In this document: piece after piece, positions 35,804-55,459 of the stretch | Numbering within the stretch: position 1 is the first letter of the stretch | Layout: every line of letters begins with the position of its first letter | Origin: Gammaproteobacteria bacterium | GTDB taxonomy: Bacteria > Pseudomonadota > Gammaproteobacteria > UBA5335 > SLRW01 | Length of the DNA: 64,000 nt | NCBI GenBank assembly: GCA_035638775.1 | Contig: DASQZJ010000064.1 | Coordinates: 62,453-126,452, forward strand | Direction of reading: 5' to 3' | The notes under the pieces: model-generated | What the model saw: only the letters and a program-made list of their open reading frames with translations | Told to the model about the DNA's origin: nothing | Databases searched by the model: none | Made by a program: the position numbers and the translations under genes

Positions 35804-35807
35804 GTTG

Positions 35808-36752
35808 TCAGTCTCCGGCGAGTACACCTTCCATTGCCGTGAACACGGAGGGACGCTGCGCCACCTTGCCGTCGTCTCCCAGAAGATAGAATCCCCCCAC
35901 CATCATGGTGTCGGGCCCGTGGCGATAGAGCTGGCTGCGGATCACGTAGGGTTGCGCGGGGAAGAACGGCTTGCGGAAAAGCATCCGCGCACGGGTGATC
36001 CGGTGCCCCTTCACGGCCAGGCCACCAGCGTGCAGCTGGCGCGTGTATTGGTTCTCCAGCCCCATGATGTATTCCAGCACGTTCACGTGCTGGTTGATGT
36101 CCGTGTTGGGCATGCCCCAGACGCCCCGGTACGTCTCCCAGCCGCCGGTGTCGACCGGCTCGTGGCCCTCGGGAATCTCCGCGAGCGCCTCGACCGTGGG
36201 CAGCGGCTCCGCCCACGCGTGCTCGCGGAGCCCGTGCAGCGCCTCCGGGACCGTGGTGACCTGGCGTTGTTCGGGCGGACCCGCGGGTCGGGTGATCACG
36301 TGCAGCACCCGTGCCGAACCCGCCTCGACCAGCTCGCTGTCCTCGGTGGCGTATCCGAGGTTGGCGCGGCCGCCGGGCTGCAGCCGCCCGCGAATGCGGG
36401 TACGGGATTCGAACATGAGGCGCTCGACCCCGGTCCCGGCTGGAACCGGGCGACCGTCACGGTCGCTGTGGCTCCGGCAGAGGCGCAGCGTGAAATCGGT
36501 GTGCAGGGAGCGCCCGAAGCTCAGCGGCGCGGGGGTATTGCGGAAGTCGACGAAGTACAGCACGGGGGCGATGCCGACACGCCGCATGCCGGTCATCGGG
36601 AAACGCCGCTCCAGGTCCGCGAACATGGGCGGCATGCAGATCCCGACGAAACCCCGGATGCGCAGCCGGAACGCCATGTCCAGTCGCTCGAAGGTGGTCG
36701 GCACCTTGGCCTGTCCAGTCAGGCTGTCGATCATCTCGCTGCTATCGTTCAT
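35808..36752 (-). CDS. Double hotdog-fold protein, acyl-ACP/acyl-CoA thioesterase-like
   Basis: ORF 35808..36752, 314 aa; C-terminal half has 4HBT-type signature PNTDINQHVNVLEYI; N-terminal half of similar length; stop only 4 nt before ccmA ATG. Confidence 0.55.
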   Translation of the reverse strand: MNDSSEMIDSLTGQAKVPTTFERLDMAFRLRIRGFVGICMPPMFADLERRFPMTGMRRVGIAPVLYFVDFRNTPAPLSFGRSLHTDFTLRLCRSHSDRDGRPVPAGTGVERLMFESRTRIRGRLQPGGRANLGYATEDSELVEAGSARVLHVITRPAGPPEQRQVTTVPEALHGLREHAWAEPLPTVEALAEIPEGHEPVDTGGWETYRGVWGMPNTDINQHVNVLEYIMGLENQYTRQLHAGGLAVKGHRITRARMLFRKPFFPAQPYVIRSQLYRHGPDTMMVGGFYLLGDDGKVAQRPSVFTAMEGVLAGD

Positions 36753-37305: not shown

Positions 37306-41847
<4,542 letters not shown>

Positions 41848-41859: not shown

Positions 41860-42861
41860 TTACCGGCTCGGAAACACCAGGTCGAACCCGGAGATCTCCT
41901 GCCGGGACAGGTTCAATTGAAGATGATCCGCAGTTCGGGTGTTTACCGCAACCCGCAGCGCGGTCAGGGGCTGCATGCCACCGCCCGCATCGGATCCCCC
42001 CTGCTCGAGGCGGCTGAGCGCCAGCCGCGCGAGCTCCCTGCCCATCTGCTGGTTGTCCGGGTACAGCGAGAACAGGACCCCGCGCTGGACATACGACGGG
42101 TTGCTCGAGAACACCACCAGGTCCTTTTCCCAGGCCTTTTCCAGGATCATGGGCAGGACCACGCCGTCGTTGACCGTGACCGTGTCCTGCGGCAGCCAGA
42201 TTGCGTCGCCGCTGTGCGCCCGCCGGTCGAGGATGTCGCGGTAGCGGTGCACTGCCGTGCGCGTGTCCGGGGCCGCCAGGGCGACCAGTTCGAGCCCCTG
42301 ATCGGCGGCCGCCCGGCGCGCGAGCGCGATCAGCGACGCATTGCTGTTCGGGTCGTACACCACGAACACGCGCCGGGTGCGCGGTGAAAGCGCATGCAGC
42401 CGCGCGAACAGCGCCCGTGGAGAGGGCACCAGGCTGATCCCGGTGGGCTTGCCGTCGCCCGGCGTCGGGGGAATCAGTACGGCACCGAACACCGTCGGCA
42501 GATCGGCGCGCAACCGCCGCCCGAGCCGGTAACCGCTGCGGCCCAGCGCGACGATCACCTGCACGTCGTTGCGGTGGGCCCAGCCCGACACCGTGTGGGC
42601 GCCGACATCGTCCGCCAGGCGCAGCGTGACGACCCGCCCGGGCGCGGCGGCGCGGATCCCTCCCAGGATTTCGGTGAAGACGGCGCGATAGGGCTGACTG
42701 ATGTCCGGGTAGATTACGCCCAGCACCGGAGCGGCCTCGGCCGCCGCCGGACGCGGCAGCGGGCAGGCCAGGAGCAGCAGAAACAGCAAGGCCGCCCCGG
42801 CCGGTCCCCGCTTCCGCAGGGCGGCACGCCGTCTCGACGGATGTGGATATCTGTCCGCCAC
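41860..42861 (-). CDS. Periplasmic substrate-binding protein (ABC_sub_bind/BMP-like fold) with no ABC permease or ATPase in the window
   Basis: ORF 41860..42861; signal peptide ALLFLLLLACPLPRPAAAEA; alternating beta-alpha pattern VLGVIYPD..., VIVALG, VFVVYDPNS, LELVALA typical of type I PBPs; 12 nt upstream of sensor start. Confidence 0.65.
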   Translation of the reverse strand: MADRYPHPSRRRAALRKRGPAGAALLFLLLLACPLPRPAAAEAAPVLGVIYPDISQPYRAVFTEILGGIRAAAPGRVVTLRLADDVGAHTVSGWAHRNDVQVIVALGRSGYRLGRRLRADLPTVFGAVLIPPTPGDGKPTGISLVPSPRALFARLHALSPRTRRVFVVYDPNSNASLIALARRAAADQGLELVALAAPDTRTAVHRYRDILDRRAHSGDAIWLPQDTVTVNDGVVLPMILEKAWEKDLVVFSSNPSYVQRGVLFSLYPDNQQMGRELARLALSRLEQGGSDAGGGMQPLTALRVAVNTRTADHLQLNLSRQEISGFDLVFPSR

Positions 42862-42875
42862 ACCTCCCCCGGGTG

Positions 42876-44984
42876 CTAGAAGTTCCAGTCCAGCGCGACG
42901 TAGAAGTTCCGTCCCGGCAGCGGCAGATCGCCGGGCAGATTCACGTTCGAGCCGGTGGACAGGAGACTGGGCTCCTTCGCGCCCTGGTTGAGCACGTTGC
43001 GAACCGACCCGGCCAGCTCCAGGCCGCTGTTTCCCAGTGCATGGCGCAGGGTGAAGTCGACCCAGGTGTAGGAACCCAGGGGCGGCCGCGGATCACCGGG
43101 CGAGCGGTACCGCCGCCCCACCCAGTCGATCGTCAGGTCGGCGTTCCACTCCGGCCGGAACTGCCAGTCGCTGCGGATGTAGACCTCGTTCACCGGCGCA
43201 TTGCCCACCCGATGGTGGATGCGCTCGTCGGTGGCGTGCTGGTAGGCGTAGTTGGCGCGGAGCGTGTAGCTGTCGAGCGGCTGCCATTCGATCTCGGTCT
43301 CCATCCCGTACCCGTCCTGTCCGCCGGTGTTCTGGGCCCGCCTGGCGATGGGAGACGACGGGTCGTTCACGAAGCGGATCAGGTCGTGCATCCGGTAGTA
43401 GAACAGGTTCAGGCCGCCGCGAAGGCTCGCCGAGTACTGGTAGTCGAAAGCGGTCTCGTAGGTGTCGATGGTCTCGGGATTGAGGTTCGGATTGCCGAGA
43501 GCGATCGGATTGTTGATGTTGTACTGCTCGGCGAAGGACGGCGCCCGGAACGCGCGCCCGTACAGGAATTTGGTGGTCAGGTTGTAGCGTGTCTGCCATA
43601 CGAGGGCCAGGCGCGGATTCACCGTCTTGCCCCAGTCCGTATAGTGGTCGTAGCGCACCCCGGCGGTCAGGTCCCAGTCCCGCGCGAACCCCCACTCGTC
43701 CTGCAGGAACAGGTAGCTCACGTAGCGGTCATGGGGCCGGATGAACGGGTCGGTATTGGTGACGTCGACCAGCCCGCCCGGCAGCGGAACCGGGAAGCCG
43801 CCCGGGTCGAGCGTGTAGTTCTTGCGCTCGGTCGCACGGTAGAGGTTCTCGTGGCTGACGCCGCTGCCGATGCGCCAGGTCTGCCCGGGCCATCCCGAGT
43901 ACAGGCCCACGACGTCCAGGCGGGTATGGCGCTCGTACACGTGGGGATCGCCGATCACGCCATTCGGGAAGGTCTGCCCGTTGGGGAAGGTGGCTCCGGG
44001 GGGGAACAGCACCAGGTCGGTCCGGTTGGCCACCTGGAAATAGCTGACCTGGGTCTTGAGCCCCCAGTTTCGGGTAAGCGCGGGATCATGCCAGGTCAGG
44101 TCGGCGTCGTAGCGGTCGCTGCTGGCCTTGCCGGCGGGGTCGAGGGCTTCGTTGCCGCCGGCGCCGACGCCCTGGTCGCGGCTGCCGAGGTACCCCATGC
44201 GCAGCCGCCAGTGATCCAGCTTGAAGTCGAGGCGCGCCTCGCCCCGCCGCTTGCCGAGGTTCACCGACCCGGGCGCCAGCGATGCGCTCGTACCCATGAG
44301 GCGGTCAAGCGCGGTCTGGGCGTCGCGGCGGATGGTCGGGTGCGGTCCGCGCGTGTGCAGCAGGTCGACGCTGGCCGCGTAGTGGACCGGCCCCAGCCAG
44401 CCGGAGTGCAGGCCCCAGCCTTCCTCGGTGCCGTAGGAGCCCGCCCTGGCGCCGGTCTCGGTGCCGTGGATGTCGTCAGGGCCGCGCGTGATCACGTTGA
44501 TCACGCCGGCGTAGGCATCGGCTCCGTAGAGCGCCGACCCCGGGCCCCGGATCACCTCGATGCGCTGGATGTCGTGCACCGGCAGCCCGGGCCAGACCTG
44601 GCCGCGGTTGCCCAGGAAGGCGTTGGTGATCGGGATGCCGTTGATCAGAACCAGCACCCGGGGGTTGAACTCCGAGGTGATCCCGCGGATCTGGATGATC
44701 GGGATGTAGCCGGCGGAGGACACCGACACGTGCACGCCCGGCACTGCTTCCAGCGCCTCGGCCAGGTTGGTGGCCCCGGTCCTGAGGATGTCCTGCCGGG
44801 TGATCACGCTGGCGACCGCCGGGGCCTGGGAAATCGGCTGGCGGGTCCCGGTGGCGATGCTGACGAATTGCTGGTTGCCGTAGGACAGCGACAGGTCGCT
44901 CTCCGCCGGCCCCTTCGCGAACAGGAAGCCACTGTGCCCCGCGAGCAGCAGCCCGAGGGCTGCGGCGCAGAATCTTCTTGTCAT
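42876..44984 (-). CDS. TonB-dependent outer-membrane receptor
   Basis: ORF 42876..44984; signal peptide, plug domain VITRQDILRTGATNLAEALEAVPGVHV...IQIRG, beta-barrel ending in terminal Phe (ALDWNF). Confidence 0.9.
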   Translation of the reverse strand: MTRRFCAAALGLLLAGHSGFLFAKGPAESDLSLSYGNQQFVSIATGTRQPISQAPAVASVITRQDILRTGATNLAEALEAVPGVHVSVSSAGYIPIIQIRGITSEFNPRVLVLINGIPITNAFLGNRGQVWPGLPVHDIQRIEVIRGPGSALYGADAYAGVINVITRGPDDIHGTETGARAGSYGTEEGWGLHSGWLGPVHYAASVDLLHTRGPHPTIRRDAQTALDRLMGTSASLAPGSVNLGKRRGEARLDFKLDHWRLRMGYLGSRDQGVGAGGNEALDPAGKASSDRYDADLTWHDPALTRNWGLKTQVSYFQVANRTDLVLFPPGATFPNGQTFPNGVIGDPHVYERHTRLDVVGLYSGWPGQTWRIGSGVSHENLYRATERKNYTLDPGGFPVPLPGGLVDVTNTDPFIRPHDRYVSYLFLQDEWGFARDWDLTAGVRYDHYTDWGKTVNPRLALVWQTRYNLTTKFLYGRAFRAPSFAEQYNINNPIALGNPNLNPETIDTYETAFDYQYSASLRGGLNLFYYRMHDLIRFVNDPSSPIARRAQNTGGQDGYGMETEIEWQPLDSYTLRANYAYQHATDERIHHRVGNAPVNEVYIRSDWQFRPEWNADLTIDWVGRRYRSPGDPRPPLGSYTWVDFTLRHALGNSGLELAGSVRNVLNQGAKEPSLLSTGSNVNLPGDLPLPGRNFYVALDWNF

Positions 44985-45062
44985 GTGTCGCTCCGCCGGC
45001 CATCTGCCCTGCCCGGCCCGGGCGGCATGACCGGACTCCCCCTTTGTCCCGCCGGAACCCGA

Positions 45063-45866
45063 CTATTCCCAGCGTCTCGGTTCCGGCCCGTCGTATTCGA
45101 CCCGGGCACAGCGCAGGGGGAAGAAGCTCCCCTCCTCCTTGCGCGAGGCCTCGATGAAGCAGGGCCACATCCCCGCGAGAAACACCGGATAGGTGAACGC
45201 GTAGTACTCCCGCGGGCTCATGCCCATGTCCGCGCAGAGCGCCGCGGCGAGTCCGGCGTAGTTCATCTTCATGCGCCAGCGTCCCTGCTGCAGAGCCTCC
45301 TCGATCTCGAATGCCAGCCGCACGAACGGGCCACGATCGAAACCCAGCTCCCGCGCGACCTCCATGACGTGCGGGATCCGCTCATCGACGTTGGTCACCG
45401 GGCGTCCGTAGCCGGACAGGCCGCGGTAACGCCGGAGCTCGTCGCGGACGATGTCGCCCGGGTCCTCGCCCTGCTCCCGGCGCCGGCGCGCGCGACGCAG
45501 GAAGTCCATGGTCCGGATGTCGGGTCGGCGGCCGAAGATGCTGGCTTCCGAGACGGCCATCGCGGCACTGATGCCCAGATTGCCGGTCGTTCGCGCGGTA
45601 CCGGCCAGCGAAGCGACACGGTTGTTCCAGATGCGCGGCTCCGGGAAGCTGGTCGCGACCCACATGGCGTTCATCATGCGCAGCGTGCGCTCGTCGTAGC
45701 GTCGGCCGGTGATCCCGTAGGTGTACACCTCGATCCAGGACGAGCGCAGCAGGTCGCGGTGCAGGTCGTGCTCGCGGAAGAACACGCGCTTGCCCGGGAC
45801 CCATTCCCCCATCTCCGTTTCCCAGCGGTCCTCGAACCGCTCCAGGGACCTCCCGCCCGCGCTCAT
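45063..45866 (-). CDS. Citrate synthase/citryl-CoA lyase-fold protein, copy B (267 aa), catalytic residues apparently substituted
   Basis: Last 267 codons of ORF 45063..46430, start ATG 45866 (MSAGGRS); CS-fold landmarks RVFFREHDL, YTYGITGRRYDE, SGYGRPVTNVDERIP (GYGH to GYGR), KMNYAGLAAAL (NVDxxSG position), FLAGMWPCFIEA. Confidence 0.6.
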   Translation of the reverse strand: MSAGGRSLERFEDRWETEMGEWVPGKRVFFREHDLHRDLLRSSWIEVYTYGITGRRYDERTLRMMNAMWVATSFPEPRIWNNRVASLAGTARTTGNLGISAAMAVSEASIFGRRPDIRTMDFLRRARRRREQGEDPGDIVRDELRRYRGLSGYGRPVTNVDERIPHVMEVARELGFDRGPFVRLAFEIEEALQQGRWRMKMNYAGLAAALCADMGMSPREYYAFTYPVFLAGMWPCFIEASRKEEGSFFPLRCARVEYDGPEPRRWE

Positions 45867-45873
45867 CGCCGCC

Positions 45874-46692
45874 TCACTCCTCCTGCTGTCCGGATTGCCC
45901 GGCCCGGTGTACCTGGCCGTGGAAGAACGGATAACGCCGATAGGTTCCACCTGCCTGCTCGAGGGCATGGGCGGCGGCCCCGGGCAGGCGCAGCAACAGG
46001 TAGAGCATCTCGCCCGCGGCCGGGTCGAATCCCAGCTCCAGCAGCGCGGCCGCGGCCACGCCCGGCACCGCGAGCACGGCGCCGACGCGCCGCTCCATCT
46101 CCTCGCGGTTGCGCTGCAGCCATGCCAGCCAGCCGTGCGCGTCGCCCGCGGTGTCGACGAGACAGGCCAGCAGCTGTTGTACCGGCAGACCGCAACGCGC
46201 CGCGTGCGGGTCGAAGCCGGCGGGATGCTCCATGGACAGCCAGATGTCCGCGCGCCCGTCCTCGCCCGTGTCCCCGTCCGGAGCGGCCGCCCACGCGTCC
46301 AGCCGGCCCTCGCTGGCCAGCATGCCGCACATCGCCCGGTAGACCTCGTGACCGCCGCCGAACTGGCCCGCTCCGACGGCCAGCGCTGCCGACAGCATGG
46401 CGGCCGCCGGCGTGCGCGCGACGCCCGCATTCATGGCGGCGCGCACCGAGGGGTCCCGCGGCCCCGGGTTGGCCAGCCCGATCGCCAGCCGCTCCAGCAG
46501 GCGGGCCTGCGCCGCCGCCGGGCGTTCGCCGCGGAGCAGCAGGAACAGGTACTCGCTCCAGCCGGCGCGCGGCAGGATCTCGCCGTAGACGTCATAGCCC
46601 CGGCACAGGCAGCGCTCGGCGACGAACGGGTCGGCCGGGTCGGCGTCCTCGCGCCAGATTCCGGTATGGATCCGTTCCGCCCGGTCGGTCAT
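45874..46692 (-). CDS. Citrate synthase/citryl-CoA lyase-fold protein, copy A (272 aa), catalytic residues apparently missing
   Basis: Last 272 codons of ORF 45874..47082, start ATG 46692 in ATGA overlap with ThDP-enzyme stop; CRGYDVYGEIL, EYLFLLLRGERP, LRLPGAAAHALEQ landmarks; HADHE position reads LANPGPRD. Confidence 0.6.
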   Translation of the reverse strand: MTDRAERIHTGIWREDADPADPFVAERCLCRGYDVYGEILPRAGWSEYLFLLLRGERPAAAQARLLERLAIGLANPGPRDPSVRAAMNAGVARTPAAAMLSAALAVGAGQFGGGHEVYRAMCGMLASEGRLDAWAAAPDGDTGEDGRADIWLSMEHPAGFDPHAARCGLPVQQLLACLVDTAGDAHGWLAWLQRNREEMERRVGAVLAVPGVAAAALLELGFDPAAGEMLYLLLRLPGAAAHALEQAGGTYRRYPFFHGQVHRAGQSGQQEE

Positions 46693-48485
46693 CGGGAGTC
46701 CCTCAGTACTTTCATGCGTGTTCCCATCGGCGGGACCTGCTCGCCGTCGACCCGCACATCCAGCACGGTCGGTCCGCGGTGCCGGCAGATCGCCTCGATG
46801 TCCAGCGCCTCGAACTCCGCCGGCGTGCTCACCCGGTAACCGCAGGCACCCATGGCCTGCGCGATCGCCGCGAAGTCGACCGCCGGCAGACGGTACCCGA
46901 TCCGTTCGGCTCCGCCCAGGCGCTGACCGTGCTTGACCATGCCGAGCGCGCTGTCGTTGAGAATCACGAAGACCAACGGCAGGCCGTGCTCCACTGCCAC
47001 GGTGAGCTCCTGGCCCGACATCAGCACGCTGCCGTCTCCGGTGACGCATACCACCGGGCCGTCCCGGTAGGCCAGGGAGCATCCGACCGCAACGCCGATG
47101 GCCCAGCCCATCGAGGCGAACTTGACGCAGGCCCGGAACACGCCGCCGCCGATCGAACGGGGCCCGGCGATGCGCCGGTCCGGCGGCTCGAGGTAGTGGG
47201 TCACCCAGGCCACGCTGTTGCCGGTATCGGCGAAATACTTGGTGCTCGGCGGAAACGCGCGCGCCAGGCAGTTCATCAGATACTGCGGCGTGATCGGGGT
47301 CGACGGCCGGCCGAACGCGGCCTCGTCGTCGAAGCGGAAGGCCCGCTCGCCCGTGCGCAGGTTCTCACGAGCCCGGGCCAGATGGCGATCGCGTCGCCGG
47401 CGTCCGGCGTCGGTTTCGAAGCGCTCGATCAGCGATGCGAAGATGCGGTCGAAGCTGCCCGCCACGTGCAGACGCGCCATGGGCGAGCGGGTGAGGTTGG
47501 ACGCGGTGTACTCCACGTGCACCAGGTGGCTGGTGAGTATCGCCTCCCCGTCCCAGCCGCCGGTGCTCCACTCGGACAGGTCGGTCCCGACCGCGACCAC
47601 CAGGTCGACGCGGGGATCCTGAAGCGTGGCGTGCGCCTCGGCATGCCCGGCGAACCCGATCACGCCACGGAACAGGGGGTGCCACGGGCTCACCAGGCCC
47701 TTGCCGTCCGGCGTGGTCACGACCGGCGCATCGAGCAGCATGGCCAGGTCGAGGATTGCCGCGGCCGCCTCGTGGCATTCGTCGCCGATCACGAACACCG
47801 GCCGGTGCGCGCGTCCGATCTCCTCCGCCAGCGCCGCCAGCGCCGGCTCGTCGACGAACTCGCGCGGTCGCAGCAGGGACTCGAGGTCGTAGCTCGGGGC
47901 CTGCCCGCGTACCGGGCCGCGCAGCACGTCCAGGGGGATGCTCAGATGGGCCGGGCCGGAAGGGGCGTGGACCGCCGTCATGATGGCGCTGACGAGCTTC
48001 TGCTCGAGCTGGTCCTGGTGGGACACGAGGGAATTGTACCGGGTGCAGTTGGCGTAAATCCCGACCGTGTTGATGCCGGTGCAGGAGGATTCCTGGAACG
48101 CGCCCTTGCCGAACGTGGCGAGCGGCGTCTGCCCGGTAATCGCGAGCAGTGCCACGTGGTTGTCGTGGGCGCTGGCAACGCCGGTGACCATGTTGGTCGA
48201 GCCCGGGCCGGTGGTCGCGCAGCAGACCCCCAGCCGACCCGTCTGCCGCGCATACCCCTCCGCCATGAACGCGGCCCCGGTCTCGTGGCGGGCGACCACC
48301 ACCCGCGGCCCGCCGCGTCGGGCGCTGCGCGCCAGCGCATCGAACAGTGGCTCGATCGCGCCCCCAGGCACACCGAACACGTAGTCCACGCCGATGCGTT
48401 CGAGGTAGCGTACGATCAGGTCGGCCGCGACCTGTTCCCGGACCGGGATTCGGTGTTCCCGCCCGTCAGTGACGACGGAAGCCAT
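46689..48485 (-). CDS. Thiamine-diphosphate enzyme of the acetolactate synthase large-subunit family
   Basis: ORF 46689..48596, start moved to ATG 48485 (MASVVTDG); GVDYVFGVPGGAIEPLFDAL, ARHETGAAFMAEGYAR, CCATTGPGSTN, ThDP motif GDGSVLMSGQELTVAVEHGLPLVFVILND. Confidence 0.88.
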   Translation of the reverse strand: MASVVTDGREHRIPVREQVAADLIVRYLERIGVDYVFGVPGGAIEPLFDALARSARRGGPRVVVARHETGAAFMAEGYARQTGRLGVCCATTGPGSTNMVTGVASAHDNHVALLAITGQTPLATFGKGAFQESSCTGINTVGIYANCTRYNSLVSHQDQLEQKLVSAIMTAVHAPSGPAHLSIPLDVLRGPVRGQAPSYDLESLLRPREFVDEPALAALAEEIGRAHRPVFVIGDECHEAAAAILDLAMLLDAPVVTTPDGKGLVSPWHPLFRGVIGFAGHAEAHATLQDPRVDLVVAVGTDLSEWSTGGWDGEAILTSHLVHVEYTASNLTRSPMARLHVAGSFDRIFASLIERFETDAGRRRRDRHLARARENLRTGERAFRFDDEAAFGRPSTPITPQYLMNCLARAFPPSTKYFADTGNSVAWVTHYLEPPDRRIAGPRSIGGGVFRACVKFASMGWAIGVAVGCSLAYRDGPVVCVTGDGSVLMSGQELTVAVEHGLPLVFVILNDSALGMVKHGQRLGGAERIGYRLPAVDFAAIAQAMGACGYRVSTPAEFEALDIEAICRHRGPTVLDVRVDGEQVPPMGTRMKVLRDSR

Positions 48486-48555
48486 GCGCACCCCCCCTGG
48501 CCGGCGGACCGGGAGACCGTCCCGGCGGTGCCGGACCGTCTCCCCCATTGCTTGT

Positions 48556-48567
48556 GCAAGGCCTTGC
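48556..48567. repeat. Perfect 12-bp palindrome GCAAGGCCTTGC upstream of the ThDP-enzyme gene
   Basis: Read directly; 71-82 nt upstream of ATG 48485; possible operator or leader hairpin. Confidence 0.3.
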
Positions 48568-48656
48568 GCGTGCCCGGTTCCTGCCGGGCTGCTCACGCAT
48601 CCACGGCCCCGTCGTCACCCGGTCGCACCCGCGCGCCGCTCCGCGCATCTCAAGGC

Positions 48657-48683
48657 TCCATGCTACGTTTGAGTTCCATGCTA
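48657..48683. repeat. Direct repeat TCCATGCTA x2 in 18-bp register
   Basis: 48657-48665 and 48675-48683, inside the only AT-rich patch of the 330-bp region between the FNR-like gene and the ThDP-enzyme gene. Confidence 0.3.
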
Positions 48684-48816
48684 ACAGGCTGCGCGCGTTC
48701 GTCCAGCCGCCCGCGCCCGGATGCGCTCCCCGGACCGGCGCCGGCGCGGCGTCGGTCCGGGCCGACAGCGGGCCGGGATGGCGGTTGCCGGGGATCCTGC
48801 GGGACCGGGGCAGGCT

Positions 48817-49506
48817 TCAGGAGAAATCCCCTTTTTCCAGCCTCTCCAGTGCATTACGGACGGCGTTCTCGGACTCGTTCAGGAGCCGCGCCAGCTCCGA
48901 AGGGGGGAGCATCGACCGGGGGCGGCCGGCGTCGACCGCGGCCGGTGTCGGGTCCTCCGCGGCCAGCCTCTGCAGCAGGGAGGAGAGCCGCGCGTCCAGC
49001 CCCGTGGCACGGTCGCTCGCGCCCTCTGCGCGCAGGGAGCGCATCCGCCGGGCGAGCAGGCCGGAGACGTGCCGGCAGAAGGCCAGGTCCGCATCCGCCC
49101 GCTCCAGGAACGCCGCCAGCGGGACCACGCAGAGCTCTGTCGCCAGCACCACGGTCGCATGATACTGCCACACCGGGTCGTCCAGTGCTCCCAGCCCCAG
49201 CATATCGCCGGCCCCCAGCAGGGCCACGGTGCGTTCGCCCGCGGGCGGGCCCCCGGCCCGCCACAGGCGCACCAGTCCGCGGCGGATACCGAAGACCCGT
49301 ACCGCGGGGGTGCCCGCGGTGACCAGCACGGCGCCCCGGGCGAGCCGCCGGCGGGATACGCCCGGTGCACCCGGCCCGTCCCGGTTGCAGAGGATCCCGC
49401 ACTCCGGCACCAGCCCGCAGCGCAGCGCCCCGGAAGCACCGTCCCGCCGCGAACTGCCCGCCTCGCGGTGCCCCCCGGCACCCTTTCCGCTGGTTTGCCC
49501 GGCCAT
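48817..49506 (-). CDS. CRP/FNR-family transcription regulator, FNR-like cysteine pattern
   Basis: ORF 48817..49506; cNMP-binding-fold core GAVLVTAGTPAVRVFGIRRGLVRL...ALLGAGDMLG; C-terminal HTH SELARLLNESENAVRNALERLEKG; N-terminal RCGLVPECGILCN plus ELCVVP. Confidence 0.8.
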   Translation of the reverse strand: MAGQTSGKGAGGHREAGSSRRDGASGALRCGLVPECGILCNRDGPGAPGVSRRRLARGAVLVTAGTPAVRVFGIRRGLVRLWRAGGPPAGERTVALLGAGDMLGLGALDDPVWQYHATVVLATELCVVPLAAFLERADADLAFCRHVSGLLARRMRSLRAEGASDRATGLDARLSSLLQRLAAEDPTPAAVDAGRPRSMLPPSELARLLNESENAVRNALERLEKGDFS

Positions 49507-49575: not shown

Positions 49576-49605
49576 TTGACTTGCGCTGGGGGCGATGGTT
49601 AGGTT
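49576..49605 (+). promoter_or_regulatory. Candidate sigma70 promoter for the mrp-like cluster
   Basis: TTGACT (49576-49581) - 18 nt - TAGGTT (49600-49605); sequence match only; implies ~210-nt leader. Confidence 0.3.
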
Positions 49606-49709
49606 ATCCACCTTTGTCGGGCGAACGCCCGTTCGTAAATCGCTTCGCGCCGATGCTCGAGCCCGGCCGGGAGGAGACGATCAGCGGTCCGGGCGCTGCC
49701 CGGCCGTTA

Positions 49710-49733
49710 CTGACCCGGTCGGGGCCGGGTCAG
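49710..49733 (+). other. Perfect 9-bp hairpin in the mrp-like leader
   Basis: CTGACCCGG (49710-49718) tcgggg CCGGGTCAG (49725-49733); no T-tract after it; further hairpins at 49618-49631 and 49775-49794. Confidence 0.4.
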
Positions 49734-49825
49734 TGCGCCGCTTCGCCGACCAGGGCGCTTTCCGCGGCCCCGGCGGTTGCCGCATCCGGCAACCAACGAT
49801 TCCGTCGCCAAACAGGGGTAACATC

Positions 49826-50296
49826 GTGGCCCACCTCATCAGTCTGGGATTGGCCCTGGGTGTGTTGTGGATGCTCCTGTCCGGGGACACCCAGCCTTAC
49901 CTGCTGGCGCTGGGCGGCGGGTCCGTGCTGCTGGTCGCGTTGATCTCGCATCGCATGGACGTGGTCGACCGCGAGGGTCATCCGGTCCACCTGACGCCGA
50001 AAGCGATAGCCTACTGGTTGTGGCTGCTCCTCGAGATCGTCAAGGCCAATCTCGACGTGACCCGGCACATCCTGCGGCGGGACATGGGCATCTCGCCCAC
50101 CGTGTTCCGGGTCCGGGCCTCCCAGCACTCGGACCTTGGCCGGGTGATCTTCGCCAACTCGATCACCCTCACTCCGGGAACGGTGTCCCTGGAGGTGTAC
50201 CCCGACGAGATCGAGGTGCACGCGATTTCCCGCGACGCCGCGGACGGTCTGGCCGAGGGCGAGATGGACCGACGCGTCACGGCCTGGGAAGGCTGA
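49826..50296 (+). CDS. mrpE: Cation:proton antiporter subunit MrpE/MnhE
   Basis: ORF 49595..50296, start moved to in-frame GTG 49826 (VAHLISLGLALGVLWMLLSG) preceded by AGGGG; IFANSITLTPGTVSLEV signature. Confidence 0.8.
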   Translation: MAHLISLGLALGVLWMLLSGDTQPYLLALGGGSVLLVALISHRMDVVDREGHPVHLTPKAIAYWLWLLLEIVKANLDVTRHILRRDMGISPTVFRVRASQHSDLGRVIFANSITLTPGTVSLEVYPDEIEVHAISRDAADGLAEGEMDRRVTAWEG

Positions 50297-50300
50297 GCCG

Positions 50301-50591
50301 ATGGTCGCCGTGATCACCATCGCGATCCTGGTCACCATGCTGCTGTGCCTGGCGCGCGCGGTGCTGGGACCGACGGTGTACGACCGGATCCTGGCGATCA
50401 ACCTGTTCGGCTCTGCCACCGTGGTGATCATTGCGGCGCTGGGATTCCTCAACGGTCGGCCCCAATGGCTCGACATCGCGCTGGTCTATGCCCTGATCAA
50501 CTTCGTCAGCACCATCGCGGTGCTCAAGTTCATGGAGGGCTGGAACATGGGTGCCGCCCGGCGGGACCGCGACACCGGAGGCCGACGATGA
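50301..50591 (+). CDS. mrpF: Cation:proton antiporter subunit MrpF/MnhF
   Basis: ORF 50301..50591, 96 aa, three helices, GPTVYDRILAINLFGS typical MnhF. Confidence 0.8.
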   Translation: MVAVITIAILVTMLLCLARAVLGPTVYDRILAINLFGSATVVIIAALGFLNGRPQWLDIALVYALINFVSTIAVLKFMEGWNMGAARRDRDTGGRR

Positions 50592-50932
50592 TCCACCTGG
50601 TCGCGACCGGTCTTGCCTGGGCGTTCCTCGCGGGTGGCGCCTTCTTCCTGGTGGTGGGCGCCGTGGGGCTGTTGCGCTTCCCGGATTTCTTCACGCGCAT
50701 GCACGGCGCCGGGATCACCGACACCCTGGGTGTCGGCCTGACGCTGGTCGGCTTCTGCTTCCTTGCCGGCTGGTCGATGGCCACGATCAAGCTGCTGATC
50801 ATCCTGGCGTTCCTCTGGTTCACCAATCCCGTGGCCACGCACGCCCTCGCCAAGGCCGCGTTGCGCGACGGGCAGGTGCCGATCACCGCTGAGGACGAAG
50901 AGCAGGAGGAGGACGGGCCATCGGCGTCGTAG
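50588..50932 (+). CDS. mrpG: Cation:proton antiporter subunit MrpG/MnhG
   Basis: In-frame ATG 50588 within ORF 50345..50932 (ATGA overlap with mrpF stop); GAVGLLRFPDFFTRMHGAGITDTLG signature. Confidence 0.85.
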   Translation: MIHLVATGLAWAFLAGGAFFLVVGAVGLLRFPDFFTRMHGAGITDTLGVGLTLVGFCFLAGWSMATIKLLIILAFLWFTNPVATHALAKAALRDGQVPITAEDEEQEEDGPSAS

Positions 50933-51003
50933 TCGACATTTCGCTGCTCACCCTGCTCGGCATCACCGCGCTCACCATCATCCGCCTGCGCAGCCTGTTC
51001 GCG

Positions 51004-51480
51004 GTGGTGATGCTGGCCGGACTCTACAGCTTCGTATCGGCGGGGCTGTTCGTGGTGATGGACGCGGTCGACGTCGCCTTCACCGAAGCGGCGGTGGGTG
51101 CCGGCATCTCCACCGTGCTGATGCTGAGCACGCTCGCGCTGACTTCGCGGCGGTCCAAGCGGTCGATCCGCACCCGCGCCCTGCCGTTGCTGGTGGTGCT
51201 CGTCACCGGGACCGCGCTGATCTACGGCACCCTCGACATGCCCCATTACGGCAGCCCCGGGGCGCCGGCCAACCATCACGTGGCGCCGCGCTACCTGCGG
51301 GAGTCGATGCCCAAGACCAACGTCCCCAACGTCGTCACCTCGGTGCTGGCGAGCTATCGCGGCTACGACACGCTGGGAGAGACCACCGTCGTGTTCACGG
51401 CGGTGGTCGGGGTAACGATCCTGCTCGGGGTGCGGCGGCGGCGCCCCAACCGGCCGCGTGACGGGGGGGACGACTCATGA
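51004..51480 (+). CDS. DUF4040/MbhD-MbhE-like membrane subunit (MnhB-related, corresponds to C-terminal part of MrpA); true start probably upstream of 51004
   Basis: ORF 51004..51480 (GTG); VVMDAVDVAFTEAAVGAGISTVL and NVVTSVLASYRGYDTLGETTVVF motifs; frame is open from 50893 and 50932-51003 encodes a helix that looks like part of the domain (see findings). Confidence 0.7.
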   Translation: MVMLAGLYSFVSAGLFVVMDAVDVAFTEAAVGAGISTVLMLSTLALTSRRSKRSIRTRALPLLVVLVTGTALIYGTLDMPHYGSPGAPANHHVAPRYLRESMPKTNVPNVVTSVLASYRGYDTLGETTVVFTAVVGVTILLGVRRRRPNRPRDGGDDS

Positions 51481-51917
51481 CCGGGCACTTGGTCCTGCGC
51501 GTTGTCGCCAAGCTGCTGCTGCCGCTGATCCTGCTGTTCGCGCTGTACGTGCAGTTCCACGGGGATTTCGGCCCCGGGGGCGGCTTCCAGGCCGGCGTGA
51601 TCTTCGCCGCGGGCTTCATCCTCTACGCGCTGATCTTCGGCGTGCGCCAGGGACGCCGCGTGCTGCCGGGATGGCTCGCGCACAACCTGGTCGCGGTGGG
51701 CCTTCTGATCTACGCCGGCACCGGGGTGGCGACCCTGGCGCTGGGCGGCAACTTCCTCGACTACAACGTGCTCGCCCACGCGCCTGCGGAGGGCCAGGAA
51801 CTGGGGATCATGCTGATCGAGTTCGGCGTCGGGGTCGCCGTATCCAGCGCCATGATCATCATCGTCTACATGTTCGCCGGCCGCGGGGAAGACGACGGGG
51901 AAGAAGACCGCGAATGA
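51477..51917 (+). CDS. mrpB: Cation:proton antiporter subunit MrpB/MnhB
   Basis: ORF 51477..51917; LLLPLILLFALYVQFHGDFGPGGGFQAGVIFAAGFIL signature; ATGA overlap upstream. Confidence 0.85.
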   Translation: MTGHLVLRVVAKLLLPLILLFALYVQFHGDFGPGGGFQAGVIFAAGFILYALIFGVRQGRRVLPGWLAHNLVAVGLLIYAGTGVATLALGGNFLDYNVLAHAPAEGQELGIMLIEFGVGVAVSSAMIIIVYMFAGRGEDDGEEDRE

Positions 51918-52270
51918 GCACGTTCCTGGGCCTGTACAACTACTGGATCGTGGTGCTGCTGATGATGGGCGGCTTCTACGTCGTCATCGCCCAGGGCAAT
52001 CTGATCAAGAAAGTGGTCGGTCTGAACATATTCCAGACCTCCGTGTTCATTCTCTACATCAGCATGGGCAAGGTGCACGGGGCCACGGCCCCGATCATCG
52101 CCAGGGGATATCACCTCTACACCAACCCGATCCCCAGCGTGCTGATCCTGACCGCAATCGTCGTGGGCGTGGCGACCACCGCCGTGGGCTCGGCCCTGGT
52201 GGTCCGCATCTACGAGGCCTACGGCACGATGGAAGAAGACGAAATACACGATCAGGACAAGAGTCTGTGA
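51914..52270 (+). CDS. mrpC: Cation:proton antiporter subunit MrpC/MnhC (NuoK-like)
   Basis: In-frame ATG 51914 within ORF 51458..52270; NLIKKVVGLNIFQTSVFILYIS, LTAIVVGVATTAVGSALVVRIY. Confidence 0.85.
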   Translation: MSTFLGLYNYWIVVLLMMGGFYVVIAQGNLIKKVVGLNIFQTSVFILYISMGKVHGATAPIIARGYHLYTNPIPSVLILTAIVVGVATTAVGSALVVRIYEAYGTMEEDEIHDQDKSL

Positions 52271-53754
52271 CGTTCCACAACCTTCCCGCGCTACAGGTGG
52301 TGATCCCGCTGATCTCGGCGCCGCTGTGCTTTCTGCTGCGGCGGGCCACGCCCGCGTGGCTGCTGTCGGTGGCGGTGAGCTGGATCTGCCTGGCGATCTC
52401 GGTGTTGCTGCTGCGGCATGTGCTCGGTGTGGGCCCGATCTCGTACCACATGGGTGGCTGGATGCCGCCCTGGGGCATCGAGTACCGGGTCGACCTGCTC
52501 AACGCCTTCGTCCTGGTCCTGGTCTCCGGCATCGGTGCCGTGGTGCTTCCGTACGCCCGCCGCAGCGTGCTGTTCGAAGTGGGCAACCGTCGCGCCTATC
52601 TCTTCTACACGGCATTCCTGCTCTGCCTCACCGGGCTGCTGGGCATGACCACCACCGGCGACGCCTTCAACGTGTTCGTGTTCCTGGAGATCTCGTCGCT
52701 CGCCTCCTACATCCTGATCAGCATGGGGCGCGACCGGCGCGCGCTCACGGCGTCGTTCCAGTACCTGGTGATGGGCACCATCGGCGGCACCTTCATCCTG
52801 ATCGCGATCGGTTTCATGTACATCTCGACGGGGACCCTCAACATGGCCGATCTCGCCCGTCGCCTGCCGGAAGTGATGCAGATGCGCACCGTGCAGGTGG
52901 CCTTCGCCTTCTTCACCGTGGGCATCGGGCTCAAGCTGGCCATGTTCCCGCTGCACCTGTGGCTGCCCAACGCGTACACGTACGCCCCATCGGCCGCGAC
53001 CAGCTTCCTCGCCTCCACTTCCACCAAGGTGGCGATCTACCTGCTGCTGCGCTTCGCCTACGACGTGTTCGGCATGCCGTTCTCCTTCCACGCGATGCCG
53101 TTCGGCCCGATCCTGCTGGCGCTGAGCAGCATCGCCATCCTGTTCGCGTCGGTCGGCGCCATCTTCCAGAACAACATCAAGCGCATGTTCGCGTACTCCA
53201 GCGTCGCCCAGATCGGTTACATCACCCTGGGCATCGGGATGGCGACCGCCACCGGGCTCACCGCCGGGATCCTGCACCTGTTCAACCACGCCCTGATGAA
53301 AGGTGCGCTGTTCCTCGCCATCGGCTGCATCGTGCCCCGGCTGAATTCCATGCAGCTGGCCGACATGGCCGGCCTGGGACGCCGCATGCCGTGGACCATG
53401 GCCGCGATCGTGATCGCCGGCTTCAGCCTGGTGGGGATGCCGCTGACCGTGGGTTTCATCAGCAAGTGGTACCTGGTGATGGCAGCCCTGCAGAAGGGCT
53501 GGTGGTGGCTCGCGCTGCTGATCCTGGTCGGCTCGCTGCTGGCCCTGATCTACGTCTGGCGCGTGATCGAGGCCGCCTACCTGCGCGAGCCCAATCCCGG
53601 CCGTGACCTGACCGCCATCCGCGAGGCGCCACTGTCGATGCTGGTCCCGACATGGATCCTGGTGCTGGCGAATATCTGGTTCGGGATCAACCCGCATCTG
53701 ACCGTGGGGACGGCGGGACGCGCGGCGGCCATGCTCATGGGGCTGGGCTCATGA
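52267..53754 (+). CDS. mrpD: NuoL/M/N-type antiporter-like subunit (MrpD family), copy 1
   Basis: ORF 52267..53754 (GTG in GTGA overlap); 495 aa, ~14 helices, FVFLEISSLASYILI, KLAMFPLHLWLPNAY, YSSVAQIGYI. Confidence 0.88.
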   Translation: MTFHNLPALQVVIPLISAPLCFLLRRATPAWLLSVAVSWICLAISVLLLRHVLGVGPISYHMGGWMPPWGIEYRVDLLNAFVLVLVSGIGAVVLPYARRSVLFEVGNRRAYLFYTAFLLCLTGLLGMTTTGDAFNVFVFLEISSLASYILISMGRDRRALTASFQYLVMGTIGGTFILIAIGFMYISTGTLNMADLARRLPEVMQMRTVQVAFAFFTVGIGLKLAMFPLHLWLPNAYTYAPSAATSFLASTSTKVAIYLLLRFAYDVFGMPFSFHAMPFGPILLALSSIAILFASVGAIFQNNIKRMFAYSSVAQIGYITLGIGMATATGLTAGILHLFNHALMKGALFLAIGCIVPRLNSMQLADMAGLGRRMPWTMAAIVIAGFSLVGMPLTVGFISKWYLVMAALQKGWWWLALLILVGSLLALIYVWRVIEAAYLREPNPGRDLTAIREAPLSMLVPTWILVLANIWFGINPHLTVGTAGRAAAMLMGLGS

Positions 53755-55229
53755 CGCCCCAGGCCACCATGCTGGCGACCATCGTCGTACCGCTCGCCGC
53801 CTCGGTGCTGATCACGCGCGCCGGGCGCTGGCCCAACCTGCGCGAGGCGATCAGCGTGCTGACCACGCTGGCCCTGTTCGCCCTGGTGGTCAGCCTGCTC
53901 CCGTCCGTGCTCGCCGGCCACCGGCCGGCGCTCCAGCTGTTCCGGGTGCTGCCCGGGATCTCCCTGGGCTTCCGGCTGGAGCCCCTGGGCATGCTCTTCG
54001 CCCTGGTCGCGTCGGGCCTGTGGATCGCCACCGCGATTTACAGCATCGGCTACATGCGCGCCGAGCACGAATCACACCAGACGCGCTTCTACGCGTTCTT
54101 CCCGCTGGCGCTGGCCAGCGCCATGGGCATCGCCTTCGCCTCCAACCTGTTCACCCTGTTCGTTTTCTACGAGGCGCTGACCCTGTCCACCTATCCCCTG
54201 GTGATCCACAGGGAGACGCCGGAGGCCCGTCGCGCCGGGCGCGTCTACCTGGGGCTGCTGATGGGGACCTCGATCGGGTTGCTGCTGCTGGCGATCGTCT
54301 GGACCTGGGCCATCGCGGGCACGCTCAGCTTCCAGCCCGGCGGCATCCTCGCCGGACGCGTGCGGCACGCCGTGGTCCCGGTGCTGCTCGGGCTGTACCT
54401 GTTCGGCATCGGCAAGGCGGCGCTAATGCCCTTCCACCGCTGGCTGCCGTCGGCCATGGTCGCACCGACTCCCGTCAGCGCCCTGCTGCACGCGGTGGCG
54501 GTGGTCAAGGCCGGCGTGTTCACGGTGCTCAAGGTGGTGATCTACGTCTTCGGCACGCACCTGCTGACGCAGACCGGCGCCAGCGTATGGCTGATGTACG
54601 TGGCCGGCTTCACGCTGGTGACCGCCTCGCTGGTCGCGATGCTCCAGGACGACCTCAAGGCGCGGCTGGCCTACTCCACCGTCAGCCAACTCTCCTACAT
54701 CGTGCTCGGCGCCACCCTGGCCACCCGCTGGGGCATCATCGGCGGCAGCCTGCACCTGGTGATGCACGCCTTCGCCAAGATCACGCTGTTCTTCTGCGCC
54801 GGGGCGATCGCGGTCACCACGCACAAGACCCGCGTAAGCGAGCTCAACGGCATCGGCCGCCGGATGCCCGTGACCATGCTGGCGTTCCTGCTGGGAACCC
54901 TCAGCATCATCGGACTGCCCCCCGGCGGGGGCGCCTGGAGCAAGTGGCTGCTGGCGATGGGCACCATCGAGGCCCACCGGTACCTGCTGCTGGCGGCGCT
55001 GATGCTCAGCTCGCTGCTCAACATCGGCTACCTCATGACCATCGTGGCGCGCGCCTTCTTCCTGGCTCCCGGGGACGGCGGGGACGTGGCCGGCGTCCGC
55101 GAGGCGCCGCTTTTGTGCCTGGTGCCGCTCAGCATCACCGCGCTGGGCTGCGTGGTGCTGTTCTTCTATGCCCAGCCCATCGTGCACATGCTGATGCCGC
55201 TGGTGAACGCGACGGGGAGTGGCGGATGA
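53751..55229 (+). CDS. mrpD: NuoL/M/N-type antiporter-like subunit (MrpD family), copy 2
   Basis: In-frame ATG 53751 within ORF 53652..55229 (ATGA overlap); FVFYEALTLSTYPLV, KAALMPFHRWLPSAMVAPTPVSALLHAVAVVKAGV, YSTVSQLSYI. Confidence 0.88.
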   Translation: MTPQATMLATIVVPLAASVLITRAGRWPNLREAISVLTTLALFALVVSLLPSVLAGHRPALQLFRVLPGISLGFRLEPLGMLFALVASGLWIATAIYSIGYMRAEHESHQTRFYAFFPLALASAMGIAFASNLFTLFVFYEALTLSTYPLVIHRETPEARRAGRVYLGLLMGTSIGLLLLAIVWTWAIAGTLSFQPGGILAGRVRHAVVPVLLGLYLFGIGKAALMPFHRWLPSAMVAPTPVSALLHAVAVVKAGVFTVLKVVIYVFGTHLLTQTGASVWLMYVAGFTLVTASLVAMLQDDLKARLAYSTVSQLSYIVLGATLATRWGIIGGSLHLVMHAFAKITLFFCAGAIAVTTHKTRVSELNGIGRRMPVTMLAFLLGTLSIIGLPPGGGAWSKWLLAMGTIEAHRYLLLAALMLSSLLNIGYLMTIVARAFFLAPGDGGDVAGVREAPLLCLVPLSITALGCVVLFFYAQPIVHMLMPLVNATGSGG

Positions 55230-55459
55230 GCGAACGGCGCGACAGGCGGAACGGCCGGCGGGCCTTTGCCTGGACCTGGGCGATCGCCGCCCTGACCGTC
55301 CTGGCCGGCCTGTTCGTGGGCCGCCGCGCCGATTTCGCCGTGGAGGGCCTGTTCGGCTTCTACGCCGTCGCCGGCCTGGTCAGCAGTGCGCTGATCGCCG
55401 CCGGTGGCGCCCTGATCGCCCGGCTCGCGGGACGCGGAGAGGACTACTATGACGGCTGA
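55226..55459 (+). CDS. Small two-helix membrane protein (77 aa) inside the antiporter cluster
   Basis: In-frame ATG 55226 within ORF 54020..55459 (ATGA overlap with upstream stop; 11-nt overlap with next gene); RRAFAWTWAIAALTVLAGLFVG and FYAVAGLVSSALIAAGGALIA helices; coding status inferred from coupling only. Confidence 0.5.
   Translation: MSERRDRRNGRRAFAWTWAIAALTVLAGLFVGRRADFAVEGLFGFYAVAGLVSSALIAAGGALIARLAGRGEDYYDG

Follow-up and report, generated by a model that had tools for sequence, protein, structure and literature searches.

What does a thiamine diphosphate (ThDP) enzyme do with two partners of citrate synthase (CS) fold, and what links the three to an outer-membrane receptor and a sensor kinase? 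The question is raised by a 64,000-nucleotide stretch of a gammaproteobacterial contig (DASQZJ010000064.1, positions 62,453 to 126,452; hereafter, the window). In this window, the genes for a ThDP enzyme and two CS-like proteins, CSL-A and CSL-B, precede those for a TonB-dependent receptor (TBDR), a periplasmic solute-binding protein (PBP), and a hybrid sensor histidine kinase (HK). The initial annotation of the locus proposed a heteromeric ThDP system in which degenerate CS-fold subunits bind a coenzyme A (CoA) ester or oxo acid, or act in regulation, and which may make or degrade the molecule handled by the receptor, binding protein and sensor. Our analysis partly supports that interpretation. 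We assign a probability of roughly 0.5 to a "make, re-import and sense" reading of this conserved cassette, in which the trio acts as a synthase, the TBDR takes up the product, the PBP and HK sense it, and the output is read in cyclic di-GMP (c-di-GMP).

The enzyme trio and its gene neighbourhood

The CSL families are widespread. Using a word-index protein search that scores 8000 candidates per query, with a threshold of E ≤ 0.001, we obtained at least 2593 matches to CSL-A and at least 1696 to CSL-B. An exhaustive profile search of 50%-identity representatives returned 553 CSL-A clusters, and a CSL-B relative is encoded in at least 555 confirmed stretches of one-genome-per-species contigs, corresponding to hundreds of species. 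Among the matches listed, the hosts were Gamma- and Betaproteobacteria, Geobacter/Pelotalea, and single metagenome-assembled genomes (MAGs) of Ignavibacteria and Fibrobacteres; the names represented include Nitrosococcus, Gallionella, Sideroxydans, Sulfuricella, Noviherbaspirillum, Rhizobacter, Pelomonas, Roseateles, Azonexus, and Geobacter/Pelotalea. Cultured hosts include Nitrosococcus watsonii, Pelotalea chapellei, Noviherbaspirillum denitrificans, Pelomonas, and Roseateles. Many CSL members carry the NCBI annotation "citryl-CoA lyase".

The six window proteins were searched against 83 loci and every open reading frame (ORF) was clustered. Neighbourhood counts were restricted to 45 loci in which CSL-B is flanked by 8 kb or more of sequence in each direction; since loci were chosen via CSL-B, these counts describe the CSL-bearing members of the ThDP clade, its CSL-free relatives lying outside the sample. 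CSL-A and a ThDP gene were present in all 45 loci, the latter located upstream in the same orientation in 40. A TBDR gene was found in 42 loci, the HK in 36, and an orthologue of the PBP in 30, with all six genes present in 30 of the 45. The six genes follow one another exactly as in the window in Nitrosococcus watsonii and an Immundisolibacter MAG, where the ThDP gene likewise overlaps CSL-A by 4 nt and the HK has the same architecture. In Gallionellaceae, the PBP and kinase genes are divergent and located upstream. The recurrent neighbours in the 83 loci did not include an inner-membrane transporter or an exporter, nor was there a recurrent CoA ligase, CoA transferase, or DNA-binding regulator.

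Gene fusions connect the three proteins further. In the search of representatives, P0364 (885 aa) consisted of a full ThDP enzyme, a linker of ~30 residues, and CSL-A; its gene is followed by an overlapping CSL-B gene whose product is 43% identical to the CSL-B of the window. P0471 (574 aa) contains CSL-A and then CSL-B in a single chain (E = 2e-26 and 7e-32 versus the window proteins), and its gene directly follows a ThDP gene, with genes for a TBDR, a short-chain dehydrogenase (SDR), and a kinase alongside. P0428 and P0441 are additional CSL-CSL fusions. The entire ThDP/CSL-A/CSL-B unit is tandemly duplicated in two loci (L045, 3620-10786; L023, 3820-10780), and in a third (L090, 5714-13892) the ThDP gene is split and two CSL pairs flank a gene of the SBP_bac_5 family of solute-binding proteins. 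Because of the co-occurrence in 45/45 loci, the recurring 4-nt overlap, and the fusions, we treated the trio as one unit. Synteny and fusions together provide good support for the ThDP enzyme, CSL-A, and CSL-B forming one cytosolic multi-subunit enzyme, and the trio behaves as a unit in distant genomes, in keeping with the initial annotation.

The link of the trio to the receptor and sensor, also part of that annotation, held across phyla. The Geobacter/Pelotalea loci (L052, L055, L068, L072, L015) contain, beside CSL-A/B, a divergently transcribed ThDP gene of another lineage, whose product is 42-48% identical to BbmA, a ThDP enzyme of Brevibacillus, and 35-38% identical to the window enzyme. 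Judged from these identities, the ThDP partner looks to have been displaced by another lineage. In these loci, CSL-A/B are nonetheless still accompanied by a TBDR, by kinases, and by a protein of the ABC_sub_bind or SBP_bac_3 family. Likewise, divergent loci that lack a TBDR retain an SBP_bac_5 protein and multi-domain kinases beside a CSL fusion. Since the sensing genes were kept despite replacement of the PBP by SBP_bac_3 or SBP_bac_5 proteins, or of the ThDP lineage, the sensing link to the trio persists. Thus, candidate synthase genes lie beside a ligand-binding protein and a kinase across lineages, as in a synthase-plus-receptor cassette.

Individual loci showed further features. In L005 (~6760-8835) and L040 (~6970-8835), an IS200-like transposase gene (Y1_Tnp) separates the ThDP gene from CSL-A. 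In both, the tblastn match to the ThDP enzyme spans only ~1 kb, which may mean that these two MAGs carry a disrupted ThDP gene. Near CSL-A/B in L062, from a low-GC gammaproteobacterial MAG with no TBDR, PBP, or HK gene nearby, a gene on the minus strand (5436-8285) encodes a 949-aa fusion of AMP-binding, carrier-protein, and acyltransferase domains.

Fold, catalytic residues, and relatives of the three proteins

CSL-A and CSL-B scored 16 and 19.5 bits against the Pfam Citrate_synt model (PF00285; cut-off, 27) and 34-55 bits against the NCBIfam citryl-CoA lyase (CCL) models (PRK06224; cut-offs, 193-261). By sequence, the sole clear solved relative of both was the CCL of Hydrogenobacter thermophilus (6hxp). 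AlphaFold models based on 40-sequence alignments were confident, with a predicted local distance difference test score (pLDDT) of 85.3 and a predicted template-modelling score (pTM) of 0.85 for CSL-A, and 78.5 and 0.77, respectively, for CSL-B. Using either model as the query, Foldseek retrieved 6hxp at the top, followed by the CCL modules of ATP citrate lyase (ACLY), all with template-modelling scores of 0.67-0.74, and then citrate and methylcitrate synthases (CS/PrpC). On these models, both proteins adopt the helical fold of CCL and CS, confirming the original fold assignment. CSL-A and CSL-B are remote paralogues of one another (hhalign probability of 87%, ~20% identity).

We mapped residues onto 6hxp using phmmer, profile hmmsearch, and hhalign (probabilities of 96.5% and 96.4%), and report them in pig CS numbering. 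Residue counts are based on 40 members of each family, each ~50-57% identical to the window protein. The catalytic residues of CS, His274, His320, and Asp375, are missing from both CSL proteins, on which the three alignment methods concur; the loss of the triad, originally read by eye, was thereby confirmed. At the place of His274, CSL-A proteins have Leu (31), Tyr (5), Phe (2), or Ser (2), while CSL-B proteins have Tyr (37) or Phe (3). At that of His320, CSL-A proteins have Met (28), Leu (4), Ile (3), or another residue (5), and CSL-B has an invariant arginine, R155, in a likewise invariant GYGRP motif that replaces GYGHR. Finally, Asp375 is replaced by Thr (19), Ser (15), or Pro (6) in CSL-A and by Ala (28), Gly (7), Thr (3), or Ser (2) in CSL-B. 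His115 of CSL-A was considered as a surviving His274 and rejected: the two were aligned in one phmmer alignment and were four residues apart in the profile and hhalign alignments. Position 115 is His or Arg across the family.

The substrate-binding residues differ between the paralogues. The initial annotation had taken the His of the "HADHE" motif for a member of the triad; it is actually the substrate-binding His238, whose place is occupied by Pro in 36/40 CSL-A and 40/40 CSL-B proteins. This Pro lies in a derived P-x-P-R motif common to both, of which the Arg is invariant. The place of the oxaloacetate-binding Arg401 is taken by R235 in 39 of the 40 CSL-A proteins and by Met in CSL-B. Conversely, that of the oxaloacetate-binding Arg329 is occupied by His, Asn, Tyr, or Ala in CSL-A and by R163, within an invariant DER motif, in all 40 CSL-B proteins. 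The oxaloacetate arginines are thus split between the paralogues, the Arg401 equivalent occurring in CSL-A only and the Arg329 equivalent in CSL-B only. Such complementarity would fit one composite site in a CSL-A/CSL-B heterodimer.

Both families have conserved residues of their own. Invariant columns number 50 in the CSL-A alignment and 37 in that of CSL-B. Those of CSL-A include His242, His156, Arg79, Cys28, and Cys167, with Glu155 (36/40) and Cys30 (39/40) near-invariant; E155-H156 directly follows the place of His320. Invariant residues of CSL-B include D161-E162-R163, R78, W80-N81-N82-R83, R198, and N202. Judged from these alignments, the CSL families are under strong constraint and are not degenerate, contrary to the original description. 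Because this constraint is accompanied by new invariant residues, the CSL proteins may be neo-functionalised enzymes or ligand binders and not relics. They belong to the CS superfamily by fold, yet fail the tests of curated score and catalytic triad for CS and CCL.

In the alignments made, C28, C30, H156, and C167 of CSL-A occupy positions that are not common with 6hxp; these residues could form a putative metal site tying the loop at 137-168 to the hairpin at the N-terminus. In CSL-B, C236 and C253 are near-invariant.

The ThDP enzyme contains all three Pfam domains of the acetolactate synthase (ALS) superfamily, TPP_enzyme_N/M/C, and its translation shows the catalytic Glu in the context HETGA and the GDGS...ILND motif for ThDP/Mg. 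It therefore has the three-domain architecture, catalytic Glu, and GDG...N motif of the acetohydroxyacid synthase (AHAS) type. All 25 NCBIfam equivalog models listed for the protein scored below their cut-offs. The best of these, TIGR00118, represents the large subunit of biosynthetic acetolactate synthase (296 bits versus a cut-off of 538), and the TPP_ScyA_rel model gave 254 bits against a cut-off of 1000. Neither an ACT-domain small subunit (ilvN/ilvH) nor ilvC or ilv context was adjacent in the window or in the related loci examined. The best solved relatives were BbmA (E = 2e-88; PDB 8x3x) and CsmA (E = 1e-77; 8x3z), to which the window enzyme is ~31-32% identical, followed by AHAS enzymes. 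On these scores, the ThDP subunit is assigned to the ALS superfamily, yet to no curated family of it.

We also considered whether the cassette is the BbmA pathway. BbmA and CsmA have in common with the window enzyme a C-terminal PPMG.R.K tail, but close membership in the ScyA/BbmA-type acyloin synthases of secondary metabolism was not found. P0242, which is 88% identical to BbmA and its closest relative with contig data, adjoins a gene resembling 3-ketoacyl-acyl carrier protein synthase III (KAS-III) and a 105-aa ORF. Unlike the window cassette, its neighbourhood lacks a CS-fold partner, TBDR, and sensor. Because the P0242 locus and that of an Elusimicrobia relative are both without a CS-fold gene, the BbmA pathway was rejected as the identity of the cassette.

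Layout of the window and the upstream region

The features of the locus are listed in Table 1. The coordinates of the trio were re-derived and agreed with the initial annotation, as did the 4 nt (ATGA) that the CSL-A start codon shares with the ThDP stop codon and the 7-nt gap between the CSL-A stop codon and CSL-B. A GGAGGAG ribosome-binding site precedes CSL-B. The remaining intergenic gaps are 78 nt (CSL-B/TBDR), 14 nt (TBDR/PBP), and 12 nt (PBP/HK). The three enzymes have no transmembrane segment or signal peptide and are predicted to be cytosolic. In the HK, two transmembrane segments flank a periplasmic loop of ~135 aa. The block in the window contains no gene for an ABC permease or ATPase that could partner the PBP, and the TBDR scored below the cut-off of all specific NCBIfam receptor models, including every siderophore-receptor model.

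Table 1. Features of the cassette and its upstream region in the window
Feature	Coordinates	Strand	Length	Remarks
HK	37306-41847	-	1513 aa	HAMP, HisKA, HATPase, three receivers, Hpt, GGDEF, EAL
PBP	41860-42861	-	333 aa	ABC_sub_bind/COG2984 type; signal peptide
TBDR	42876-44984	-	702 aa	Plug and TonB_dep_Rec_b-barrel; signal peptide
CSL-B	45063-45866	-	267 aa	
CSL-A	45874-46692	-	272 aa	
ThDP enzyme	46689-48485	-	598 aa	From ATG at 48485; stop-to-stop frame up to 48596
Candidate operator/promoter element, GGACGAACGCGCGCAGCCTGTTAGCATGGAACTCAAACGTAGCATGG	48657-48706	-	~50 nt	Upstream of the ThDP gene
cNMP-binding (Crp/Fnr-like) regulator	48817-49506	-		331 nt upstream of the ThDP gene; Cys-rich N-terminus, CGLVPECGILC

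The G+C content of the window is ~70% and, as a consequence, long spurious ORFs occur on both strands. The G+C content at third codon positions (GC3) is 0.89 for the ThDP, CSL-A, and CSL-B genes alike, matching that of genuine flanking genes such as the TBDR gene. Plus-strand ORFs antisense to the cassette (42843-49322 and 45721-46839; longest, 2159 aa) were rejected as genes and represent high-GC shadow frames. One such frame has a GC3 of 0.83, so this measure by itself can mislead in this window. In a pattern scan, neither the junctions within the enzyme trio nor the gap from CSL-B to the TBDR gene showed a terminator-like site; the only matches, three weak ones close to where the TBDR and PBP genes and the PBP and HK genes meet, were not in excess over shuffled sequence. 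An Rfam/riboswitch scan of 36.5-50 kb returned nothing credible, a scan for sigma-70 promoters found no credible site, and no Fur box was matched in the window at up to three mismatches.

Upstream of the ThDP gene, the element GGACGAACGCGCGCAGCCTGTTAGCATGGAACTCAAACGTAGCATGG contains a direct repeat of TAGCATGGA with a spacing of 18 nt from start to start. The two copies of TAGCATGGA in this element are the only ones in the whole window, where 0.24 are expected. The block is near-identical in the closest relative, L004 (7165-7212), though the surrounding spacer has diverged, and it was not found in the other loci. Based on the repeat and its conservation, the block may be an operator or promoter. 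The cyclic nucleotide monophosphate (cNMP)-binding, Crp/Fnr-like regulator was kept beside the cassette in L004 only; it was not counted among the core parts of the cassette and is probably not one of them.

Farther out, the window contains an exopolysaccharide/O-antigen-type cluster (303-27312; Wzy_C, flippase, sugar transferase, UDP-glucose dehydrogenase, asparagine synthase, and AMP-binding enzyme), cytochrome c maturation genes (30970-36752; CcmF, CcmC-like, and ABC ATPase), and an Mrp/Mnh-type cation:proton antiporter operon (49595-57161).

Proposed pathway, alternatives, and comparison with known systems

Accessory genes bear on the direction of the reaction. An SDR family is represented in 21 loci; in ~18 of these, the SDR gene is inserted after the ThDP gene and ahead of CSL-A, in the same orientation as both. 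In six loci, a Sulfotransfer_3 gene directly follows CSL-B (L043, at 10904-12854; L037; L041; L063; L047; and L012). An adenosine 5'-phosphosulfate (APS) kinase gene comes after the sulfotransferase gene in L043, and another is located farther downstream in L023 (15153-15728). These genes suggest that some lineages may sulfate the product. The initial annotation left open whether the system makes or degrades a molecule. Because the sulfotransferase, APS kinase, and SDR are in-line tailoring genes, and no inner-membrane importer is conserved, we favour synthesis; degradation is correspondingly disfavoured.

In the proposed pathway, CSL-A and CSL-B would form a heterodimer that mimics the CS homodimer, and CSL-A would dock on the C-terminus of the ThDP subunit. 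By analogy with ALS, the ThDP subunit would decarboxylate a 2-oxo acid and ligate it to a second carbonyl compound, yielding an acetolactate-like tertiary α-hydroxy-β-keto acid. The CS-fold pair, evolved for citrate or citryl-CoA, might then bind and process this labile intermediate, for example, by decarboxylation to an acyloin. Such processing would employ the new residues: MEH, PxPR, and RLPG...H..EQ of CSL-A and PxPRxWNNR, GYGRP, and DER of CSL-B. The role of acetolactate decarboxylase is ascribed to the CSL pair here by reasoning from known chemistry. In some lineages, the product may be reduced by the in-operon SDR or sulfated by the sulfotransferase, with or without the APS kinase. The released molecule would re-enter across the outer membrane through the dedicated TBDR. 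The PBP would capture it and present it to the hybrid HK, in the manner of LuxP/LuxQ or TorT/TorS, and the GGDEF/EAL output of the HK would alter c-di-GMP levels. The product would thus serve the cell as an extracellular cue of its own making, resembling either an autoinducer or a chelator. More tentatively, the system may represent a widespread new form of cell-cell or cell-environment signalling, in which a three-subunit enzyme of ThDP and re-invented CS-fold proteins makes an acyloin-type molecule, in some cases reduced or sulfated, that is re-imported by a TBDR and read out by a PBP-kinase pair through c-di-GMP; its hosts would include ammonia oxidisers, iron oxidisers, and Geobacter.

Several points weigh against the make, re-import and sense reading. 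The direction of the reaction is read from accessory genes found in a minority of loci, and the physical association of the trio from synteny and fusions. A conserved exporter is absent, as is an importer, from the recurrent neighbours in the 83 loci. The block contains no conserved DNA-binding response regulator and so shows no sign of feedback control of the operon. Finally, a TBDR is unusual for a quorum signal, such receptors being more typical of scarce nutrients or metal chelates.

In a variant of this reading, the product is a metallophore: the trio would make a small α-hydroxy-carboxylate chelator, the TBDR would import the metal complex, and the PBP and HK would sense the loaded chelator in the periplasm, much as PfeS/PirS sense ferric enterobactin, with the cell adjusting its behaviour in response. 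A dedicated TBDR occurs in 42/45 loci, and metal-centred lifestyles are well represented among the hosts (Gallionella, Sideroxydans, Geobacter, Nitrosococcus). Moreover, the CS fold binds citrate-like ligands and, according to established chemistry, an ALS-type product would bear an α-hydroxy-carboxylate, the iron-binding unit of citrate-type siderophores. Nevertheless, we consider a metallophore unlikely, as no Fur box was found in the window and the TBDR did not reach the cut-off of any siderophore-receptor model. Further, the recurrent neighbours include no non-ribosomal peptide synthetase (NRPS) or NRPS-independent siderophore (NIS) synthetase, inner-membrane permease, reductase, or conserved exporter, and the divergent loci without a TBDR retain the solute-binding protein and HKs. 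A catabolic role, in which an external acyloin or α-hydroxy acid is imported via the TBDR, sensed by the PBP and HK, and cleaved in the cytosol by a ThDP lyase with the CS-fold pair, is quite unlikely. The superfamily does include ThDP lyases (benzaldehyde lyase and 2-hydroxyacyl-CoA lyase are among the matches), the combination of TBDR, sensor, and enzymes resembles nutrient-utilisation loci, and a sodium:solute symporter gene adjoins the TBDR gene in L052. However, an inner-membrane transporter is not conserved across loci, downstream catabolic enzymes do not recur, the in-line sulfotransferase and APS kinase are biosynthetic tailoring enzymes, and the closest solved relatives of the ThDP enzyme are carboligases.

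Two further explanations concern the nature of the enzymes. The CSL proteins could be genuine Claisen-type acyl-CoA enzymes, resembling either CCL or a synthase, with relocated catalytic residues that catalyse a separate step of the pathway and are not subunits of the ThDP enzyme. Invariant polar residues do lie beside the lost positions (E155-H156 in CSL-A; R155 and D161-E162-R163 in CSL-B), in line with the label "citryl-CoA lyase" that NCBI gives many members. We nevertheless judge this very unlikely: all three canonical residues are absent in both paralogues across 40 + 40 sequences, the scores of 34-55 bits fall short of cut-offs of 193-261, neither a CoA ligase nor a CoA transferase is among the recurrent neighbours, and the ThDP-CSL-A fusion argues for a single enzyme complex. 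Least probable of all, to the point of near-exclusion, is an ordinary ALS of branched-chain amino acid biosynthesis with coincidental neighbours and CSL genes that are decaying relics. The top NCBIfam score is indeed to the large subunit of the biosynthetic enzyme, but at 296 bits against a cut-off of 538, and no ACT-domain small subunit or ilvC gene is adjacent. This explanation is contradicted by the high conservation of the CSL families, their synteny, always alongside the ThDP gene, and the existence of fusions.

If the make, re-import and sense reading is correct, CS-fold partners would constitute a new type of subunit in ThDP enzymology, replacing ACT-domain regulators, and would be a clear case of the CS fold being re-used without its catalytic triad. 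It would also point to an extracellular metabolite, served by dedicated routes of import and c-di-GMP sensing, in hundreds of environmental species; among these are Nitrosococcus, Gallionella/Sideroxydans, and Geobacter, organisms whose behaviour in biofilms and on surfaces is important to nitrogen and iron cycling. The compact six-gene cassette occurs in cultured strains, making the proposal directly testable.

The cassette looks like an undescribed make-and-sense system for a small molecule. A full-text literature search returned no description of it, and we are not aware of any ThDP enzyme whose partners have the CS fold. Genes described as "citryl-CoA lyase" in Caulobacter and Comamonas were rejected as irrelevant to the CSL proteins, being of the CitE type. 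Neither the literature nor the BbmA context provided a match to a characterised pathway, in line with the initial annotation. Among known proteins, the CCL of 6hxp and the CCL module of ACLY, all-helical and ~260-270 aa in length, are the best match in sequence and structure for both CSL proteins, and CSL-A keeps the CCL-like RGYD-like N-terminal motif and R..PG..AH..EQ motif. Nevertheless, CCL is one homo-oligomeric protein that contains the triad, whereas the CSL proteins are two obligate remote paralogues that lack it. Further, the CSL pair is coupled or fused to a ThDP enzyme, while the CCL module of ACLY is joined to a module resembling succinyl-CoA synthetase.

Two enzyme systems provide partial parallels. 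The AHAS holoenzyme comprises a ThDP catalytic subunit and an ACT-domain regulatory subunit. The cassette resembles it in having a catalytic subunit of the same superfamily that is translationally coupled to genes for smaller accessory subunits. It differs in that the accessory proteins are two of CS fold and not ACT domains, and in the context of TBDR, PBP, and sensor instead of ilv genes. The alsS-alsD and budABC operons encode a ThDP acetolactate synthase, an acetolactate decarboxylase, and an SDR reductase. Similarly, the cassette combines a ThDP carboligase, a candidate handler of a tertiary α-hydroxy-β-keto acid, and, in 21 loci, an SDR. However, the CS-fold pair that would stand in for acetolactate decarboxylase is unrelated to that enzyme, and the als/bud operons have no link to outer-membrane import or sensing such as is present in the cassette.

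The sensing half resembles LuxP/LuxQ and TorT/TorS, in which a binding protein and a kinase act together: the PBP gene lies, without an ABC permease, beside that of a hybrid kinase with a small periplasmic loop. As a whole, the cassette recalls CqsA/CqsS, in which the synthase of an α-hydroxyketone is encoded next to its receptor. Unlike CqsA/CqsS, the cassette would employ ThDP and a CS fold rather than pyridoxal phosphate, contains a TBDR, and has a predicted GGDEF/EAL output. As in CqsA/CqsS, a candidate synthase is encoded alongside a candidate receptor, and a ThDP carboligase would naturally yield α-hydroxyketones, the chemical class of CAI-1 and LAI-1.

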